A stretch of DNA of 41,929 bases from a virus (lineage: Duplodnaviria > Caudoviricetes), in IMG/VR virus record IMGVR_UViG_3300022183_000017, positions 1 through 41,929 of that record. The stretch is one strand, 5' to 3'. The position numbers and the translations under genes were made by a program. Below, piece by piece: positions 4,837 to 41,929 of this stretch; position 1 is the first letter of the stretch, and every line of letters begins with the position of its first letter. Under the pieces are notes generated by a model, which was not told the DNA's origin, did no database searches, and saw only the letters and a list, made by a program, of their open reading frames with translations.

Positions 4837-4888
4837 TTATCCCTGACAGCCGCGTGGTGCGGCTGACACTAGCCACGACAGGAGATAA
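4837..4888 (+). ncRNA. Structured cis-regulatory RNA downstream of the gpT-like capsid gene (candidate Mu-gpT-DE-like motif)
   Basis: Outer stem TTATC-CCTG / CAGG-A-GATAA encloses the SD; inner hairpin CAGCCGC-GTGGT-GCGGCTG; GCCACG (4872-4877) is complementary to CGTGGT (4853-4858). The location matches the described Mu-gpT-DE context; identity not verified. Confidence 0.55.
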
Positions 4889-4890
4889 TC

Positions 4891-5100
4891 ATGGCTCTAT
4901 CTACTTTTTCCGGTCCAGTGCGTTCGAACGCTGGTTTTCAAATCCCCGTTGTAGCCACCGCAGATTTGCCAGCTTTTGGCGATGTTGCTGTTGGAACCGT
5001 TTATATCGTTAGCGACAACGGCGCGGGCAACAACGAGTATTGCATCGTAATCAACACAGGTGCTGCTTGGGTAACTGCTGTTGGTGCCGCTCTTAGCTAA
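4891..5100 (+). CDS. Small virion/capsid-associated protein
   Basis: MA.STFSGPVRS..GF start typical of genes following this MCP type; AGGAG SD. Confidence 0.7.
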   Translation: MALSTFSGPVRSNAGFQIPVVATADLPAFGDVAVGTVYIVSDNGAGNNEYCIVINTGAAWVTAVGAALS

Positions 5101-11701: not shown

Positions 11702-13756
11702 ATGGCAAGTACATATACAGTTAATATCGGAATTGAAAAACCGGGGACCGGGGATCAATCTGGGACATGGGGCGACACGACTAACACAAATTTTGACATT
11801 ATTGACCAAGCAACAAACGGAATTGCTACGGTCACGTTAGCTGCTGCGGGCACTTCGGGTTCACCCAACACGCTGCTAATTAATAACGGCGCACTGTCTG
11901 ACGGGCGCAATCGCTTTATTGAGTTTAATGACGGTGCGGATCTAGGCGCAACAGCATATGTGCAGCTTGGTCCAAACGATGCCGAAAAGATTGTACACTT
12001 GCGGAACAGCTTGTCTTCTTCTCGTAGCCTAATTGTTTTCCAAGGAAACTACAGCGCCTCTAATGATTTTGAAATTCCTAATGGTGCGGATGTACTTTTA
12101 AAGTTCAATGGCGGTGGCACGGGGGCCACGGTCACTGACGTAAATGCAAATCTAACTGCAACTAAAGTTACTTCTGGCGCACTGGATGTAGACAATATAA
12201 ACCTAGATGGAAACGCTATTACCAGCACCGATACCAACGGGGATGTTGATATTTTGCCTAACGGTTCAGGCAAAGTTAATCTTGACGGCGATGGTTCTAG
12301 CGGCGGTGTTACCATATCAGACGGTCTTGTTGATATTCGTACAGGAACAGGAACACGGTCTCAGGTAAAATTTTACTGTGAATCCAGTAATCTTCATGCT
12401 CAGACCGTACAACCACAGCCTCATTCGGCGGGGGTAACCAATACTCTTACTTTACCCGCAGGAGGCGACCAAGAACTTGTCGGTACAACTGACACACAAA
12501 CACTAACTAACAAGACTTTAACGGCACCCACAATCACGGGTGCCGGTCAAATTGCGGGTGTGTTTACTGGAGATTTAACAGGTAACGCGGACACGGCCAC
12601 TGCGCTGGAGACGGCAAGGACTATAGGTGGCGTGTCTTTTAATGGTACAGCTAACATAAACCTTCCCGGTGTAAATACTTCAGGCAATCAAGACACTTCA
12701 GGTAATGCTACTACGGCTACCGCCCTTGCAACAGGCCGCACCATTGGAATGACGGGCGATGTGGTATGGACATCCGCCTCTTTTGATGGTTCTGGTAACG
12801 TGACTGGAACAGCTACTATTCAGGCTAACTCTGTTGCTTTGGGAACAGATACTACTGGAAATTACGTTGGTACTATTACTGGCGGTACTGGTATTGACTC
12901 TACGGGGGCTACTTCGGGTGAGGGGATTGCACACACCCTTTCCCTAGACCTAAACGAACTTACCACGTCTACTTCGGATGGCGACGGTGACTTCTTTGCC
13001 GTAGTCGATTCAAGCGGAAACCAAAAGAAGCTAACCAAAGGGAATATCAATATTTCCGGCTTCAACAACAACAGTGGGTTTATTACGTCTGCGGACGGAG
13101 GTAACGCCGCGACGTTAGACTCACTAGATAGCACACAGTTCCTTCGTTCAGATGCAGCGGATACGAAGACATCCGGTGACTTGTCTTTCAGTGACAACGT
13201 AAAGGCAAAGTTTGGTGCTGGGTCTGACTTGCAGATTTATCACAATGGCACTGACAGTTTTATTGATGACGCAGGTACTGGTGACTTGTTTATTCGTTCA
13301 AACCGTTTGTTTATAGACAAATACACTGGTGAGCGTGTACTTTCCGCTACTGCTGATGCTGGTGTTGACCTTTACTACGACAACGCAGCCAAACTCGCCA
13401 CCACCAGCACAGGCGTAACAGTCACAGGCACAGCCATTGCCACAACAGACACCGACACAACGAATACCGGTTCTGTGACTTTAGACTTTGGTGCTAACCA
13501 AAACTTTGTGCTGACGCTAACCGGCAACGTGACGTTAGCCAACCCAAGCACTGAGCAGGTTGGTCAGTCAGGCTTTATTACTTTTATTCAAGACGGAACT
13601 GGCGGACGTACTGTGTCTCTTGGAACCGACTACGAAACGGCGGGTGCAGCAGGGTTAACGCTATCTACTGCCGCAAGCACTACAGACATTGTGCCGTATG
13701 TTGTTGCGGCATCAGGTCGTATTCTGCTTGGCGCACCGCAACTAGCTTTTGCATAG
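11702..13756 (+). CDS. Tail fibre protein
   Basis: N-terminal G.QSGTWG.TTN.N anchor, TQTLTNKTL, two NAxTATAL.T.RTIG repeats, LDS.QFLRSD, C-terminal LDF...NF.LTLTGN...QDGTGGRT domain. Confidence 0.85.
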   Translation: MASTYTVNIGIEKPGTGDQSGTWGDTTNTNFDIIDQATNGIATVTLAAAGTSGSPNTLLINNGALSDGRNRFIEFNDGADLGATAYVQLGPNDAEKIVHLRNSLSSSRSLIVFQGNYSASNDFEIPNGADVLLKFNGGGTGATVTDVNANLTATKVTSGALDVDNINLDGNAITSTDTNGDVDILPNGSGKVNLDGDGSSGGVTISDGLVDIRTGTGTRSQVKFYCESSNLHAQTVQPQPHSAGVTNTLTLPAGGDQELVGTTDTQTLTNKTLTAPTITGAGQIAGVFTGDLTGNADTATALETARTIGGVSFNGTANINLPGVNTSGNQDTSGNATTATALATGRTIGMTGDVVWTSASFDGSGNVTGTATIQANSVALGTDTTGNYVGTITGGTGIDSTGATSGEGIAHTLSLDLNELTTSTSDGDGDFFAVVDSSGNQKKLTKGNINISGFNNNSGFITSADGGNAATLDSLDSTQFLRSDAADTKTSGDLSFSDNVKAKFGAGSDLQIYHNGTDSFIDDAGTGDLFIRSNRLFIDKYTGERVLSATADAGVDLYYDNAAKLATTSTGVTVTGTAIATTDTDTTNTGSVTLDFGANQNFVLTLTGNVTLANPSTEQVGQSGFITFIQDGTGGRTVSLGTDYETAGAAGLTLSTAASTTDIVPYVVAASGRILLGAPQLAFA

Positions 13757-20969: not shown

Positions 20970-22999
20970 TGGCTACAGAAACTCAAATTGTAAGGGAAGC
21001 CCCCGAAATTGAAGCCTATAAATTAGGGCTGCTACAAGATGCTAAAGGGCTCGCCGACCAACCGGTAGGCGTTCCCGTAATTGATCCCGTTACAGGTGAG
21101 CCTGTAATGGAAGAGTACACGGATGCTGACGGAAACACGCAAACACGCCAAAAACTTCAACTGCCCCCGCAACAAATTGCGGGGTTCACGGATCTGCAAA
21201 CTGACGCTTTTACAGCGGCGGGGCAAGCGGGCGGAATTGGCGGTTATAAACCTTTCTTGACTGAAGCTGGCTACAGCATGGGCGATGCCCAACAACAGCT
21301 ACGCGGTGTATATGGGGATGCTTCTCCTTTTATTAGGGGAGCCATGCAAACCGCAGACCCTTATCGTCAGGCTTCTGAGGCCGCACTTTTACAATCTATG
21401 GCAGGTGTCCCCGGAGAAGTTGGTGCCGCGCAACAGGGTATTCAAGACTCATTACAGTATGGACAAGCCGCTACCGGCGGGGCCCTTACCGACATGGATG
21501 CAGCATCTGTCGCGGCCCGCGGTCAAGCCCAACAGGGTATCGGCAGTATTTTGAATGCGGCGGATCTTATTCCGGGTCAAGTACAAACCGGGCAGGCTGG
21601 TATGCAAGCGGCTGGTACGGGAGGTCTTCAGGCTGCGGGCACGGCTGGTCAACAGGCGCAGCAGGCTATTCAGAGTGCTAGAGGAATTACAGGACAAGCT
21701 GGTCAGCAAATTCTAGGCGCAGCGGGAGCCGCGGCCCCCGGAACGCAGGACGCTATCCTTCAGTCTCAGGCCGCAGGTCAGATGGGTGTGGGCGCAGCAC
21801 AACAGGGTATTGCTGGGTTAGCTGGTGGCGCGGCTCAATTCGATCCAAGTACAATCTCTCAATATATGAGTCCTTATGAAGATGCGGCGGTTCAACAGGC
21901 TTTACAAGATATTGCGCGTCAAGGGCAAATTCAGCAGCAGGCTCAAGCGGCTCAGGCGGTAGGTGCGGGCGCGTTTGGCGGCTCACGGGCCGGGGTTCAA
22001 GCTGCGGAAACGGCTAGGGCTCAGCTTGAACAGCAGGGACGCACGGCGGCTCAAATGAGGGCGCAGGGTTATCAGAGTGCGGCGACTCAAGCGCAACAGG
22101 CGTTTGAACAGGCTCGTTCTCGACAGCTTGAGTCTGCCGGTCTTACCGGACAGCTTGGTCAGGCTGGAGCGGGGTCCGCGCTTCAAGCGGCTCAGCAATC
22201 TGGGGCACTCGGTCAGTCTCAAGCGCAGCTTGGTGTGGGAGCCGGTCAGGCGGCTGGTCAATTAGGACTTGCTGCGGAGCAGCTTGCGGCACAAACTGGT
22301 TTACAAACTGGACAGCTTGGTCTTTCTGCTCAGCAGGCGGCTGGTCAATTCGCTGGTCAAGGGGCTGAGTTGGGCCTTACTGGCGCTCAGCAGCAGGCGG
22401 CTTTGGCACAACAGGCCGCGCAGCTTGGCATTTCTACAGAGCAATTAGCGGGGCAACTTGCTCAACAGGGTGGACAACTGGGTCAGTCCCAAGCGCAACT
22501 GGGCCTTTCAGGTGCACAAGCAGGCGGTCAGCTAGGTTTACAAGGCAAGCAGGCAGAGGCTGGTATGGCGGGTCAGCTGGGGGATTTAGGTCTTCAGTAT
22601 GGTCAGTTTGGCCTTCAGACCGGGCAAGCTTTGGGGCAACTTGGCTTGCAAAGCGGGGAGTCTCTAGGTACATTAGGTTTACGCCAAGCTAGTCTTGGTG
22701 AGTTGTCTCAGAATACGGGCCTTAAAGATATCCAGACTCAGTACGAGCTTGGTAAACAGCAGCAGGGTCAGCAGCAAGCCGTTTTGGAAGCTAAACGTCA
22801 GAGCGACATGGCTCAGCTATATGAGCCGTATAACAGGTTATCGTACCTGTCAGACATTTATAAGGGTGCGCCGTCAACGCAACAAACAATTGCTACTTCG
22901 ACCACACCCAACGTATCACCGGCCCAGCAGTTTATGGGTCTAGGCATAGCAGGATTATCAGCAGCAGCAGGCGCAAATAAAGCGGGGTTATTCGGATGA
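20969..22999 (+). CDS. Q/A/G-rich ejection (DNA pilot/tube-like) protein
   Basis: QYMSPY, GAFGGSR motif and a long ~11-residue xxQLG periodic region. Confidence 0.7.
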   Translation: MATETQIVREAPEIEAYKLGLLQDAKGLADQPVGVPVIDPVTGEPVMEEYTDADGNTQTRQKLQLPPQQIAGFTDLQTDAFTAAGQAGGIGGYKPFLTEAGYSMGDAQQQLRGVYGDASPFIRGAMQTADPYRQASEAALLQSMAGVPGEVGAAQQGIQDSLQYGQAATGGALTDMDAASVAARGQAQQGIGSILNAADLIPGQVQTGQAGMQAAGTGGLQAAGTAGQQAQQAIQSARGITGQAGQQILGAAGAAAPGTQDAILQSQAAGQMGVGAAQQGIAGLAGGAAQFDPSTISQYMSPYEDAAVQQALQDIARQGQIQQQAQAAQAVGAGAFGGSRAGVQAAETARAQLEQQGRTAAQMRAQGYQSAATQAQQAFEQARSRQLESAGLTGQLGQAGAGSALQAAQQSGALGQSQAQLGVGAGQAAGQLGLAAEQLAAQTGLQTGQLGLSAQQAAGQFAGQGAELGLTGAQQQAALAQQAAQLGISTEQLAGQLAQQGGQLGQSQAQLGLSGAQAGGQLGLQGKQAEAGMAGQLGDLGLQYGQFGLQTGQALGQLGLQSGESLGTLGLRQASLGELSQNTGLKDIQTQYELGKQQQGQQQAVLEAKRQSDMAQLYEPYNRLSYLSDIYKGAPSTQQTIATSTTPNVSPAQQFMGLGIAGLSAAAGANKAGLFG

Positions 23000-37544: not shown

Positions 37545-39436
37545 TGAGTTTGCAAATGACAATGTTTGGCCCCAAGAGTGAATGGGTGCCACCCGCAGAA
37601 CTGCCAGACATCTTTGATGCAAAGCAAATTGCTATAGATGTCGAGACCCGCGACCCAAACATCAAAGTTAACGGGCCGGGATGGCCCACTGGAGACGGAG
37701 AAGTTGTGGGCTACGCTATCGCGGTAGCAGATTGGGCCGGATACATACCTATTCGCCACCTTGGGGGCGGTAACTTAGATGAGCGCATTGTCAATAAGTG
37801 GCTCAAGAAAGTTTTTGAGTGCCCCGCCGACAAGATTATGCACAACGCTCAATACGACGCCGGTTGGATACGTCGTATGGGGTTCAAGATAAACGGGCGC
37901 ATCATCGACACCATGCTGGTAGCCGCTCTGTTAGATGAAAACCGATTCAGCTACAGTTTGAATGCGCTTTGCTACGATTTGCTGGGCAAAATAAAAACCG
38001 AAAAGACTTTGCAGGAAGCCGCCCGTGAGTTCGGGCTCGACCCTAAAGCTGAGATGTGGAAGATGCCTGCGATGTATGTCGGCCCGTATGCTCAGAATGA
38101 CGCAGAAATAACCCTAGATTTATGGAATTATTTATCTACACAATTAACCAAAGAAGACCTTTGGCATATCGCGGACCTTGAATTAAAGCTTTTGCCCTGC
38201 TTAATCGACATGACATGGCGCGGCGTCCGTATTGATCAAAACCGTGTCGAGCGCACTCGTAACATGCTTCTTAAAAGAGAAAAAGACATTGTTAAACAAA
38301 TAAAGTCTGTGGCCGGTATGGACGTAGAGCTTTGGGCGGCTGCTTCAATTTCTAAAGCTTTTGATAAGTTAAGCATTTCCTACCCAAAAACTGAAAAGGG
38401 CGCACCGTCCTTTACAAAGTCTTTCCTGACGGATCACCCGCATGAACTGGCACAACTAATCGTGCAGGCCCGAAACCTAAACAAGACTAGCGGAACCTTC
38501 ATCAACACAATTATGAAGCACTGCCGGACAGACGGACGCATTCACGGGCACATCAACCAGATTAGGTCAGACGACGGCGGCACGGTTTCGGGGCGCATTT
38601 CAATGTCCAACCCAAACCTACAGCAAATCCCCGCCCGCGACCCTGAACTGGGGCCGATGATCCGTAGCTTGTTCCTGCCAGAAGAGGGCGAGCAATGGGC
38701 GGCTATTGATTTCTCGCAGCAAGAACCGCGCATCTTGGTGCATTATGCACACTTATTTAATAAACACCGCGGCGGATCAATGAGGGGCGTAGAGGAGTTC
38801 GTAAATGCTTATAGACACGATCCTGATATGGATTTTCATACGATGGTTGCAGAAATGGCGTCGATCAATCGCAAACAGGCGAAGACGATTAACTTAGGCA
38901 TGATGTACGGGATGGGCGTTAACAAACTTTCTGAGCAGTTAGACATTGACGTAGAAGACGCCAAGAGTCTGGTTAAGCAGTACCATGATCGCGTCCCGTT
39001 TGTTAAGGGCTTGATGAACGGTGTTCAGGCACGTTTGAACGACAAAACAAGTGGAGGCTCTGTGCGGTCTTTATTGGGGCGTAAATGCCGCTTTGATCTG
39101 TGGGAGCCAGACACTTTTGCCATGAACAAAGCTCATCCGTACCAAAAAGCCATTGACGAGTACGGCGAGACAACGAGGCTTAAACGGGCATATACCTACA
39201 AAGCCCTAAACAGGCTTATTCAGGCGTCCGCCGCAGACATGACTAAGCAGTCTATGGTCAACATGTATGAGCAAGGATATGTTCCACTAATTCAAATCCA
39301 CGATGAAATAGCTATTTCGGTAAAAGACCGTGCGGCAGCAGAAAATATTGCCAACATCATGGAAAATGCTGTACCCTTGGAAATACCAAGTAAATGCGAC
39401 ATAGAGATCGGCCCAAGTTGGGGTGAAGCTAAGTAA
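37544..39436 (+). CDS. polA: Family A DNA polymerase with 3'-5' exonuclease, Leu762 type
   Basis: Exo DVET, HNAQYD, YAQND; GRISMSNPNLQQIP; motif A DFSQQEPR; motif B RKQAKTINLGMMYG; motif C IHDE. Confidence 0.96.
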   Translation: MSLQMTMFGPKSEWVPPAELPDIFDAKQIAIDVETRDPNIKVNGPGWPTGDGEVVGYAIAVADWAGYIPIRHLGGGNLDERIVNKWLKKVFECPADKIMHNAQYDAGWIRRMGFKINGRIIDTMLVAALLDENRFSYSLNALCYDLLGKIKTEKTLQEAAREFGLDPKAEMWKMPAMYVGPYAQNDAEITLDLWNYLSTQLTKEDLWHIADLELKLLPCLIDMTWRGVRIDQNRVERTRNMLLKREKDIVKQIKSVAGMDVELWAAASISKAFDKLSISYPKTEKGAPSFTKSFLTDHPHELAQLIVQARNLNKTSGTFINTIMKHCRTDGRIHGHINQIRSDDGGTVSGRISMSNPNLQQIPARDPELGPMIRSLFLPEEGEQWAAIDFSQQEPRILVHYAHLFNKHRGGSMRGVEEFVNAYRHDPDMDFHTMVAEMASINRKQAKTINLGMMYGMGVNKLSEQLDIDVEDAKSLVKQYHDRVPFVKGLMNGVQARLNDKTSGGSVRSLLGRKCRFDLWEPDTFAMNKAHPYQKAIDEYGETTRLKRAYTYKALNRLIQASAADMTKQSMVNMYEQGYVPLIQIHDEIAISVKDRAAAENIANIMENAVPLEIPSKCDIEIGPSWGEAK

Positions 39437-39493
39437 GCTTTTTCATGGTGTTCCTCCCTTAAACTGGCTCCGCTTCGGCGGGGCCTTTTTTTT
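39437..39493 (+). ncRNA. Candidate 3'-UTR small RNA with anti-SD seed
   Basis: GCTTTTTCATGGTGTTCCTCCCTT between the polA stop and the terminator; its reverse complement is SD + ATG AAA AAG C. Confidence 0.4.
39466..39493 (+). terminator. Intrinsic terminator of the replication operon
   Basis: GGCTCCGC-TTCG-GCGGGGCC with cUUCGg tetraloop and T8. Confidence 0.93.
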
Positions 39494-39494
39494 C

Positions 39495-39523
39495 TTGCGT
39501 ACATACCATATCTCCTATATATT
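39495..39523 (+). promoter_or_regulatory. Sigma70-like promoter for the RHH gene
   Basis: TTGCGT, 17 bp, TATATT. Confidence 0.6.
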
Positions 39524-39558
39524 CGCTTATAGAAACGCTATATATGGAGTTTTCCTTA

Positions 39559-39717
39559 ATGGATATAACTAAATGGAAGTCTGTCTTGGTGCCAATCGAG
39601 GTATATGAGCAGATTAGAACAATCGCAAAAGCCGAAGGCCGGACAATAAGCGGGCAGCTTCGTATTATGTGGGAAGTGTATAAAGAGACCCGCATAAAAG
39701 AACTCCAGAGCCGTTGA
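39559..39717 (+). CDS. 52-aa ribbon-helix-helix (Arc-like) regulator (not in ORF track)
   Basis: MDITKWKSVLVPIEVYEQIRTIAKAEGRTISGQLRIMWEVYKETRIKELQSR; strand-helix-A..EGRT(I)-helix pattern; GGAG SD at 39546-39549. Confidence 0.8.
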   Translation: MDITKWKSVLVPIEVYEQIRTIAKAEGRTISGQLRIMWEVYKETRIKELQSR

Positions 39718-39742
39718 CATATTTTTTTAGCTATGGTATGGG
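39714..39742 (+). promoter_or_regulatory. Sigma70-like promoter of the small-gene operon
   Basis: TTGACA (39714-39719), 17 bp, TATGGG with a TGn extension; weak -10 overlapping the TATGGGA motif. Confidence 0.55.
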
Positions 39743-39776
39743 ATAAGTAATGTTAACTCTTATACGGGAGACCAAT

Positions 39777-40217
39777 GTGGACTATACAAAGTTAATTGTT
39801 TCAACCATCGGGGACGTTTTAGGTGACGCCGAAGACCACGGCATGAAGCCGACGCCTGCTATGAAACGGCTCGCGGCCTACGGCCTTCTGGTTGAAGCTC
39901 AACTCGACGAAGCCAATACTCTGGGAGAGAAACCGCAAGAAGACATGCCGGAAAAGTTCCATTTCACCCCTGACGGCATTGAAATGAGTTTTGATTTCAC
40001 GCCCGAATGGGTAAAGCAGCCCAAAGTAAAACGCAAGAACGGCCGGAAAAATTGCAAAGAATGCAACACTAAGCTCACGGGTTTAAAGCGTTTGTTCTGT
40101 TCTAGGTTATGCCAAAAACGCAATTGGATTAAAGATAATCCTGAAAAAGTTCAGGCCAGCCACAACCGGTACGGTAAACGACAAAAGTCAAAACAAAAAC
40201 TCAGTTTGGTAAAATGA
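39777..40217 (+). CDS. Hypothetical protein with C-terminal C4 zinc finger
   Basis: GTG start behind GGGAG SD; CKEC...FCSRLC and basic tail. Confidence 0.7.
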   Translation: MDYTKLIVSTIGDVLGDAEDHGMKPTPAMKRLAAYGLLVEAQLDEANTLGEKPQEDMPEKFHFTPDGIEMSFDFTPEWVKQPKVKRKNGRKNCKECNTKLTGLKRLFCSRLCQKRNWIKDNPEKVQASHNRYGKRQKSKQKLSLVK

Positions 40218-40390
40218 AAACTTGCCCTGAGTGCGGCGGGGAGGGACAATGTGAGTATGAAGTCTCAGTGCCCTCCCCAATGTCTTGGCGGGGCGGGTGG
40301 CTTGAAGACCGGTTGTTAGAGTGCGAGATTTGTGGCGGATCAGGAGAGTTGGGAGATGATAAAGAACAGGGAATTGAATTATCCCCCTAA
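40214..40390 (+). CDS. 58-aa DnaJ-type zinc-finger protein (not in ORF track)
   Basis: MKTCPECGGEG...ECEICGGSGE: two CxxCxGxG motifs; ATGA overlap with the upstream gene. Confidence 0.8.
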   Translation: MKTCPECGGEGQCEYEVSVPSPMSWRGGWLEDRLLECEICGGSGELGDDKEQGIELSP

Positions 40391-40574
40391 ACCTTTTGGT
40401 GACGCCGGTAAAATACAAAAGCTTCTAGATAACAACCAGTGCCCGCGCTGCCGAACAAATTTACCGCCCGTCGAAGTGCACGGTCATGTGCAATGCGCCG
40501 TATGCAAACTTTATATCAACGAATGCTGTCAGGGAGAGCAATGTGATATGCCCGAAGTGTCAGGGGAAAAGTAA
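40356..40574 (+). CDS. Small zinc-ribbon protein
   Basis: CPRC...VHGHVQCAVC...ECCQGE; start ATG 40356 with AGGAG SD. Confidence 0.75.
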   Translation: MIKNRELNYPPKPFGDAGKIQKLLDNNQCPRCRTNLPPVEVHGHVQCAVCKLYINECCQGEQCDMPEVSGEK

Positions 40575-40821
40575 AGTATATAATAGCCGACCTAAGAATG
40601 ATACTATTCGTCGGAATAGAAAGTGCCTAGAGTGTGGACATAAATACACGACCCTAGAACTACTGGAACACCCCGTAGAAAAAATAGTGCGGCCTACGAA
40701 GCCAAAATTAACACTGGTTAAAAAGAAGAAACCGAAGCATAAACCGCGGTTCACCGACCTTGACTTTGATAATATGTCAGACGAAGAACTAGAAGCGGCA
40801 ATATTCGACGGGAGGTTTTAA
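40543..40821 (+). CDS. NrdR-like zinc-ribbon protein lacking the ATP cone
   Basis: CPKC...KV.NSR....IRR.RKC.ECG.KYTT.E matches the NrdR N-terminal domain pattern; GTG start with GGGAG SD. Confidence 0.75.
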   Translation: MICPKCQGKSKVYNSRPKNDTIRRNRKCLECGHKYTTLELLEHPVEKIVRPTKPKLTLVKKKKPKHKPRFTDLDFDNMSDEELEAAIFDGRF

Positions 40822-40938
40822 TGCGAAAAGTTAGGAACCCTGTCGCTAAACAAATAAAGCGTTTTAAAAACCAGATAGTCCGACCCAAAAAAGGGAAAGG
40901 ATCGTATAAAAGGAGAGGGCGGGTCTACCGCCCTTTTT
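40821..40938 (+). CDS. arfA: ArfA-like alternative ribosome-rescue factor, predicted non-stop ~39-aa form (first in-frame stop only at 41138)
   Basis: GGGAGG SD; NPVAKQI..FK.QIV.PKKGKGSYKR versus E. coli ArfA N...FRQRV..KKGKGSY.R; terminator inside the frame. Confidence 0.7.
40916..40938 (+). terminator. Intrinsic terminator within the arfA-like frame (possibly bidirectional)
   Basis: AGGGCGG-GTCTA-CCGCCCT-TTTT; the loop contains the stop codon of the convergent nuclease gene. Confidence 0.7.
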
Positions 40939-41326
40939 CTATGCACTTGTCCCACGACCGCACTTCTAAATCATCTTTATCAAACTTCTGGGGCAGGAAC
41001 CGCTTGGTTAGCTGCCCCTTTAAACATTCAACCGGCTTAAATAAAACCCGCTCGCGATCCAAAGCCACTAGCGCGACGACATCACAGTTTTTCTTGGTCA
41101 AAGGGCGTTTTTTACCGCCATACCCCAAAGAAAAATGATACCCCGACCCGTTTTTATTTCGCTTAAACTGGCTTGCCTTAACTTGGACGCGGATTAAACC
41201 GTCCTCTGTCTGTGCTATGATGTCCGTAGTGCCCATATGTACTATCTCGCAAGATACACCCAGTTTCATCAGGCGCACCATACAAATGAGCTCACCAATC
41301 TTTCCAGAATTGACCGCGTCGTGCAT
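40925..41326 (-). CDS. PD-(D/E)XK endonuclease
   Basis: G.IGE (motif I), TDII (motif II), RVQVK (motif III), CDVVALV. Confidence 0.8.
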   Translation of the reverse strand: MHDAVNSGKIGELICMVRLMKLGVSCEIVHMGTTDIIAQTEDGLIRVQVKASQFKRNKNGSGYHFSLGYGGKKRPLTKKNCDVVALVALDRERVLFKPVECLKGQLTKRFLPQKFDKDDLEVRSWDKCIEKGR

Positions 41327-41383
41327 ATCTTAACTTTACACATAACGATTTCGAAAAAAACATCTTTTATGCCTATTTATATG

Positions 41384-41411
41384 TTGCAATTCCCATACAA
41401 TCGTATATAAA
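41384..41411 (+). promoter_or_regulatory. Sigma70-like promoter of the candidate sRNA
   Basis: TTGCAA (41384-41389), 16 bp, TATAAA (41406-41411); predicted start near 41418. Confidence 0.55.
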
Positions 41412-41417
41412 GGTCTT

Positions 41418-41489
41418 TGTAGAGCCCCCAAGCTTTACATTCCCGTAGTGAAGCCCTCAGAGTGATGCCGCTCTGGGGGTTTTCTTTTT
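41418..41489 (+). ncRNA. Candidate antisense small RNA (~70 nt)
   Basis: Hairpin TGTAGAGC-CCCCAA-GCTTTACA, linker TTCCCGTAGTG, 14-bp terminator stem (41451-41482) plus T tract; no ORF; linker complementary to the downstream RBS. Confidence 0.7.
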
Positions 41490-41493
41490 CCTG

Positions 41494-41523
41494 TTGACAA
41501 TATGTTGTCATTTATATTATATG
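41494..41523 (+). promoter_or_regulatory. Sigma70-like promoter of the next early operon
   Basis: TTGACA (41494-41499) followed by AT-rich TATATTATATG offering several -10 candidates. Confidence 0.65.
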
Positions 41524-41555
41524 GGATAAATCTTATATCACTACGGGAGATAAAA

Positions 41556-41882
41556 ATGATTGGTGACGATAAAATTGACTTTGTAAACGGGCTGTCTAAC
41601 GAAGATGTCGCAGATGTAATCAGTATCCTCGCTTCACGGCTCTGTGTCTGGGAACAAAATGACGGTGTTAGCTGCTTAACAGACGTGGAAAACGCGACCC
41701 TGAACGGGGCTTTTGTGCAAATCAACCCAAAGCACCGGCATAAGCGTTCTAAAAATCCAAAAGAACTTACGCGGGAGCAACTTTACTCCGTCCTAATCGG
41801 TAAATTTGACGATGATGTCTGGCACTGTAGCCGAACCGAAGACGGGCTCGTCGAAATCCAGTTCTATGTGAAGGAGGACTGA
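41556..41882 (+). CDS. Hypothetical early protein
   Basis: ATG 41556 behind GGGAG SD; acidic 108-aa protein. Confidence 0.7.
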   Translation: MIGDDKIDFVNGLSNEDVADVISILASRLCVWEQNDGVSCLTDVENATLNGAFVQINPKHRHKRSKNPKELTREQLYSVLIGKFDDDVWHCSRTEDGLVEIQFYVKED

Positions 41883-41883
41883 T

Positions 41884-41929
41884 ATGCTTGTTATTACACG
41901 GGAAGAAGCGCAAGCGCGAGGGCTAAAAC
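41884..41929 (+). CDS. 5' part of a CDS truncated by the window end (MLVITREEAQARGLK...)
   Basis: AGGAGG SD; the I.R.EA...GLK start is seen in phage HNH-associated DNA-binding modules; too short to assign. Confidence 0.55.
   Translation, partial: MLVITREEAQARGLK

Follow-up and report, generated by a model that had tools for sequence, protein, structure and literature searches.

A conserved promoter–terminator unit near the end of a marine phage contig probably (at about 70%, by our estimate from sequence comparison) gives rise to an RNA of ~70 nt whose seed would pair in trans with tagged RBSs, blocking the translation of a set of genes. The window, the whole stretch of DNA that was analysed, is a virus contig of 41,929 bases and represents a partial genome of an HTVC023P-type marine podovirus, an assignment based on the identity of its polymerase (48–55%) and capsid (71%) to those of HTVC023P, HTVC027P, 023Pt_psg01, and DSL-LC04. 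The phage group is widespread; its tag and the mirror of the tag in the unit differ together between lineages, and one small RNA (sRNA) thus likely turns the tagged gene set down. Because the contig stops 370 bases past the sRNA unit, the early region was mostly read from relatives. No DNA match to window positions 39400–41929 was found among annotated phages, and since the closest matches of a host search in genome contigs were bins of mixed taxa, no host is named. An Rfam Mu-gpT-DE RNA was also recognized in the window at 4841–4893, directly 3′ of the major capsid gene (73.9 bits).

The predicted small RNA unit and the tagged genes

The sequence-only reading of this DNA had described a promoter, a hairpin, an unpaired linker, a terminator, and a second promoter, all of which were recovered (Table 1). 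The 73-nt unit at 41418–41490 folds as hairpin, linker, and terminator with a z of −5.8, which 0 of 200 shuffles reached. In the predicted fold, positions 41440–41446 are unpaired with a probability of 0.94–1.0, and the last 2–3 matching bases of the seed fall within the terminator stem. The 5′ hairpin is optional, being missing in L112, L130, and L154, a shorter form in which the seed is the 5′ end. P1 is kept in relatives, one of which has TATAAT, and its spacer contains TCCCATA, the reverse of the motif at tagged promoters; the imperfect inverted repeat TATGGGA-N4-TCTTATA, which overlaps P2, is a candidate operator. A consensus scanner placed the terminator at 41450–41483 and listed neither promoter, and P1 and P2 therefore rest on reading and conservation. 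Contig X2 of a public RNA run (assembled contigs) spans 41371–41560 including the promoter; as this run covers many other genes too, neither a discrete RNA nor selective expression is readable from it, and its uncovered parts are uninformative.

Table 1. Coordinates of the predicted sRNA unit, the tagged leaders, and associated features in the window
Feature	Position	Strand	Details
Predicted sigma70-type promoter P1 of the sRNA	41384..41411	+	TTGCAA 41384–41389, 16-nt spacer, TATAAA 41406–41411; sequence and conservation
5′ hairpin of the predicted sRNA	41418..41439	+	Folding and aligned copies
Seed, complementary to the RBS tag	41440..41451	+	Sequence and folding
Predicted intrinsic terminator	41453..41489	+	Stem 41453–41480, U tract to 41489
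Predicted promoter P2	41494..41537	+	TTGACA 41494–41499, 18 nt, TATATG 41518–41523
RBS tag TCACTACGGGAG	41538..41549	+	Best-binding leader of 56 predicted window genes, −16.7 kcal/mol
Tagged gene 41556, 108 aa	41556..41882 (ATG 41556)	+	No family, 7 homologues
Second tagged leader	39714..39779	+	TTGACA 39714, TATGGGA 39737, tag TACGGGAG 39763–39770, GTG 39777
Ribbon-helix-helix (RHH) protein	39544..39717	+	Pfam RHH_5 match (E 1e-5, slightly below the curated cut-off); conserved in relatives

The linker TCCCGTAGTGA (41441–41451) is complementary to TCACTACGGGA (41538–41548), an 11-nt match at the RBS of gene 41556 that can be read directly, as had been reported. Chance is indeed an unlikely origin of the match, but the figure of 1 in ~4 million given for it earlier was overstated: among 100,000 shuffles of the linker, a single one gave a match of at least 11 nt to the leader of gene 41556, this number rising to 92 per 100,000 if the anti-SD core was kept constant. 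The window holds one strong target only, the next two leaders (−9.9 and −8.7 kcal/mol) being barely ahead of the fourth at −8.6. The second tagged gene, from GTG 39777 to 40217, has a predicted binding of only −8.7 kcal/mol. The second-best seed match lies in the leader of the gene at 40821–41138, whose product has an ArfA-like N-terminus (Pfam E 2e-5, slightly below the cut-off). A hairpin inside the frame of bacterial arfA leads to a non-stop mRNA, and a terminator-like hairpin at 40916–40934 within the frame of the phage gene would do likewise.

Gene 41556 is one of many interchangeable genes at the position after the unit, and in relatives, the unit and the RBS tag (C)UACGGGAG persist in front of a changing next gene. 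Among 109 metagenome loci, 99 were callable (L569, probably the window's own record, was left out), and their next genes carried 52 different N-terminal hexapeptides, only 4 of the 99 resembling gene 41556. A tag-like motif was kept in 88 of the 99 leaders, and several of the misses were mis-called starts. The tag precedes several genes per genome, located between DNA polymerase and terminase, the complete relative G003 having five tagged starts in its early region and G008 seven. The proposal of an antisense repressor was supported as regards an anti-RBS RNA and not as regards its dedication to a single, possibly toxic gene. Because some tagged genes of L010 and L019 are internal to operons and have no promoter of their own, the tag is an RBS element and not merely part of a promoter. 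The adjacent tag of L010 has a mismatch in the seed match, and the tags of G004 are degenerate. Within the subset of tagged genes that was scanned, most had no family, one had a DUF7227 match, and no antirepressor was present. In two genomes, at G003 51724 and G006 676 (minus strand), the tag also precedes a gene that is not part of the early region and has a hydrophobic segment at its C-terminus.

Tagged promoters and the spacer of the sRNA promoter both carry the TATGGGA/TCYTATA repeat (39737–39743, 41391–41397, and 41520–41537 in the window), the 17-nt form of which matches 102 viral stretches. The RHH protein is a candidate binder of this motif; the RHH gene and the repeats together suggest a candidate phage repressor with its operators, that is, a second, transcriptional layer. 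Structured leaders were observed elsewhere in the group. In L020 and L030, about 2.1–2.7 kb past the sRNA unit, a promoter is followed by two hairpins, a U run, and then a tagged gene, and this two-hairpin stretch is possibly an attenuator-like leader. Long structured leaders with CCGACGCTATT in common lie in G001 near 22400–22480 and in G006 near 11970–11830, and that of G001 contains its own anti-tag sequence in cis.

Conservation of the unit and joint variation of seed and tag

The unit patterns match 46 viral and 110 metagenome stretches. When loci were found via the neighbouring nuclease, 32 of 49 contained the unit, and the other 17 were without it at that position (L058 was left out). 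An Rfam search and an alignment of relatives had both been proposed in the sequence-only reading. The former returned no family for the unit, with no C4 match at gathering score in the window or in 8 related loci; in the latter, 16 aligned copies kept 95.6% of pair cells and showed four two-sided changes, a result seen in 3 of 500 shuffles, which is not a probability because the sequences are related. Conservation settles that the observed element is real.

In a quick polymerase tree, units were spread across a clade of 49 rows and were not seen in the low-GC pelagiphage branch; as the tree has open forks, independent seed–tag switches are not countable on it. HTVC023P, HTVC027P, 023Pt_psg01, and G002 had no convincing unit within the regions searched, and three of these four had repeated leaders. 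The cultured low-GC phages L199 (HTVC023P), L200, and L202 had repeated leaders (ACTAACAAA, GAAAGG), and the searched regions contained no inverted copy ahead of a terminator. In the cultured DSL-LC04, the leader motif stands ahead of four or five starts, and one inverted copy lies directly before a terminator at the 3′ end of a gene, where no promoter was seen. Second promoter–terminator or seed–terminator units with other seeds were noted in L346/L347 (about 230–410 nt after the polymerase), L374, L400, and L033, which suggests more than one such RNA per phage. In L243, L244, L264, and L266, the reverse strand of the unit reads as an SD plus ATG, resembling cis-antisense RNAs over a gene start.

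A polymerase search of 4 of the 64 parts of the viral collection, from which the best 80 loci were kept, provided 76 usable loci, many of them with little downstream sequence. A promoter–terminator detector blind to the targets identified units in 31 of these 76, and the seeds of the units so detected vary, each matching leaders of its own phage. The pairs of seed and tag include AUUCUUUUCUCUGUG with AUAUGGAGAAAAGAAU, ACUCCAUGUA with UACAUGGAG, and GUUCUCCAAU with UUGGAGAAC. In G001, which came from the target-first search described below, the switch is complete (UACCUCAUAAAA with UUUUAUGAGGUA), and its promoter spacer retains TCCCATA. A lack of conserved or co-varying complementarity had been named beforehand as evidence against the proposed RNA; instead, at least eight different seeds were found among lineages, each matching the tag of its own phage. 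The seed match reaches 4–10 nt past the SD, following each phage's own tag, and cross-binding is strong inside a seed–tag class and weaker across classes.

The expected co-variation of linker and RBS was supported by a blind swap test using the first unit of each of the 17 loci with at least 4 kb downstream. In 12 of the 17 loci, the unit placed its own leaders among the top 4, and in 6 of these in first place (p 1e-5); the remaining five came in at ranks 12 to 17. Reducing the set to a single locus for each seed class, in three alternative ways, gave p values of 5e-6, 2e-5, and 3e-4. Binding was stronger for early than for other leaders in G003 (9/24 vs 3/58; p 5e-4), G009 (p 0.002), and G005 (p 0.009); the contrast was marginal in G008 and missing in G006, G004, and DSL-LC04. 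Among control units from unrelated contigs, 4 of 57 matched at least two of their own leaders, compared to 2 of 5 family units in the same set of short loci. A target-first search, judged by eye, suggested units in 11 of 28 further sequences, and a curated 23 × 23 matrix was compiled; the former selects for complementarity and the latter used seed windows picked after the matches had been seen, and neither is thus a blind test. Promoter–terminator units matching at least two own leaders were observed in L206, L225/L273, and L256, which have no match to the family proteins.

Proposed scenario and alternative explanations

Little is known about the way in which lytic phages dependent on host RNA polymerase turn off their first genes. 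Considering the comparisons above, we propose the following scenario. On phage entry, host RNA polymerase would transcribe both the sRNA and the tagged genes, and the RNA, protected by its terminator, would build up. The accumulated RNA would then cover the SD of the tagged mRNAs and end their translation as a set, turning the output of the tagged genes into a pulse; a gene recombined behind the tag would join the regulon. The RHH protein on TATGGGA repeats may add a transcriptional layer. Repression as the sign of this regulation is assumed from the overlap of the match with the SD. A broader version, which we put forward tentatively and consider doubtful as a whole, regards the tag as a lineage-private address on exchangeable early-gene RBSs, so that one RNA would time the shut-off and also silence incoming phages of the same class; the seed–tag classes of this abundant family of lytic marine phages would then be exclusion groups defined by RNA. 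If true, the scenario would show how a shuffled gene block stays under a single control, may define mutually excluding marine phages, and would supply natural orthogonal sRNA–RBS pairs.

Exclusion could instead be the chief role of the RNA, which would then mainly block the early translation of a second related phage. That seeds and tags of a single phage group differ jointly across at least eight classes fits such a role, as do the strong cross-binding within classes and the weaker cross-binding between them, and the c4 heteroimmunity of P1 and P7, as outlined in a section of PMC12197685, offers a precedent. However, a tag drifting with its regulator would yield the same pattern, and HTVC027P of the same group is described as lytic in PMC12753301; we regard exclusion as an unlikely chief role.

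Pairing may also be real but non-repressive, the RNA stabilizing or processing tagged mRNAs, or the CU-rich seed may mainly hit host mRNAs, with the phage tags being secondary. A generic anti-SD core is indeed present in every seed, and several seeds bind foreign leaders well. Against this explanation, the match extends 4–10 nt past the SD, where it tracks the phage's own tag, and it covers the SD itself; we judge the explanation quite improbable.

The sequence-only reading had added that the linker could act in cis on read-through transcripts, P1 transcripts running past the terminator and folding the linker on the next RBS so as to silence the adjacent gene only. The 177-nt region does fold the linker onto the RBS (z −6.0), in most close relatives a tagged gene immediately follows the unit, and G001 has one such cis pairing within a leader. 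Cis action is thus possible for the adjacent gene, but it cannot reach targets kilobases off: matching tags are 1–9 kb distant and behind other promoters, and in G005 and L345 no adjacent tagged gene follows the unit. In addition, because P2 starts 3′ of the terminator, the main mRNA would be without the linker. As the sole explanation, a cis switch is therefore very improbable.

Even less credit can be given to the idea that the repeated leaders serve as sites where cassettes recombine, the inverted copy being a functionless relic. Genes do change immediately behind the tag, and in mycobacteriophage Angelica the reverse SAS copy is located within gene 92 and forms no stand-alone unit; the inverted copy studied here, however, always lies between a promoter-like site and a terminator, is predicted to be single-stranded, and tracks the tag across lineages. 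A type I toxin–antitoxin pair with gene 41556 as the toxin, one of the comparisons drawn in the sequence-only reading and in keeping with the adjacent arrangement and the RBS overlap, can practically be dismissed, since the partner is swapped (4 of 99 neighbours like gene 41556) and the 108-aa product has no family match and no transmembrane-level segment, with a best 19-residue hydropathy of 0.96.

Comparison with known systems

A type I antitoxin is a small RNA encoded beside a gene and complementary to its RBS, and the toxin is small and usually hydrophobic. The phage unit differs in having many targets, no fixed partner (52 N-termini among 99 neighbours), and no small hydrophobic protein beside it, and the candidate toxin–antitoxin assignment was rejected on these grounds together with the length (108 aa), hydropathy (0.96), and lack of family of the product of gene 41556. 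This RNA is not described in the papers found by a literature search that left out most subscription papers. In the catalogue of structured viral RNAs (PMC10690425), three supplements contained no match, though an entry for the motif, with no function assigned, may exist elsewhere in it.

Cuckoo RNAs of Alphaproteobacteria display an anti-SD-like sequence and consist of 2–4 hairpins with CCUCCUCCC loops, according to the description of them in PMC4615179. The phage unit resembles them as a small RNA displaying an anti-SD-like sequence; it lacks both the layout of 2–4 hairpins and the CCUCCUCCC loops, and membership in this family was rejected. The unit also resembles bacterial multi-target anti-RBS sRNAs in architecture, with a predicted stand-alone promoter, an accessible single-stranded seed, an intrinsic terminator, and several complementary RBSs. 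RNAs of the AbcR type belong to these bacterial sRNAs. GcvB is treated as another in a passage of PMC12197685. Unlike both, the predicted RNA is phage-encoded, and its targets bear a phage-private tag differing by lineage.

For the tag itself, the nearest parallel is the SAS/ESAS of cluster K mycobacteriophages, presented in sections of PMC3203893 as a repeated asymmetric RBS motif at non-structural genes that exceeds 16S pairing, is frequently preceded by an imperfect inverted repeat, and has a single opposite-strand copy; whether RNA or protein binds it is left open there. The tag shares with SAS/ESAS the asymmetry, the repetition at RBSs mainly before non-structural genes (one tagged gene lies outside the early region), and the upstream inverted repeat. 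It differs from the 13-bp cluster K consensus, and its opposite-strand copy lies in a promoter–terminator unit of its own that changes with the tag, whereas that of Angelica lies inside gene 92. The parallel thus ends at the reader, and the reverse SAS of Angelica, having no stand-alone unit, was not supported as a similar sRNA. Repeated phage RBS motifs of the SAS kind, as far as the sections of PMC3203893 concerned with them go, have so far been without an identified reader. For the tag of the phages studied here, the genome itself offers a candidate reader, which varies in concert with the tag across lineages.

Among phage RNAs, the P4 CI RNA is of a c4-like kind and pairs with short complementary sites at a phage RBS. 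The c4 antisense RNA of P1 and P7 (Rfam RF01695) pairs in trans at a phage RBS and determines heteroimmunity, as stated in parts of PMC12197685 and PMC2864571. The sequence-only reading had compared the logic of the unit to that of c4 and P4 CI while pointing to a different structure. The comparison of logic holds and membership does not: the Rfam C4 model had no match at E up to 10 over 41300–41650, the unit has one seed only, located either in the linker or, in the shorter form, at the 5′ end, in place of the loop-borne elements of a multi-stem RNA, and no antirepressor was among the tagged genes scanned. Moreover, c4 acts on the antirepressor mRNA of a temperate phage, whereas the predicted targets here are many interchangeable genes of a group described as lytic. 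Like c4 and P4 CI, the predicted RNA would pair in trans over phage RBSs, with a phage-specific sequence giving the specificity, as computed here. The unit may therefore be placed beside them as a new variant, a trans-acting anti-RBS RNA predicted from sequence with strong comparative support.
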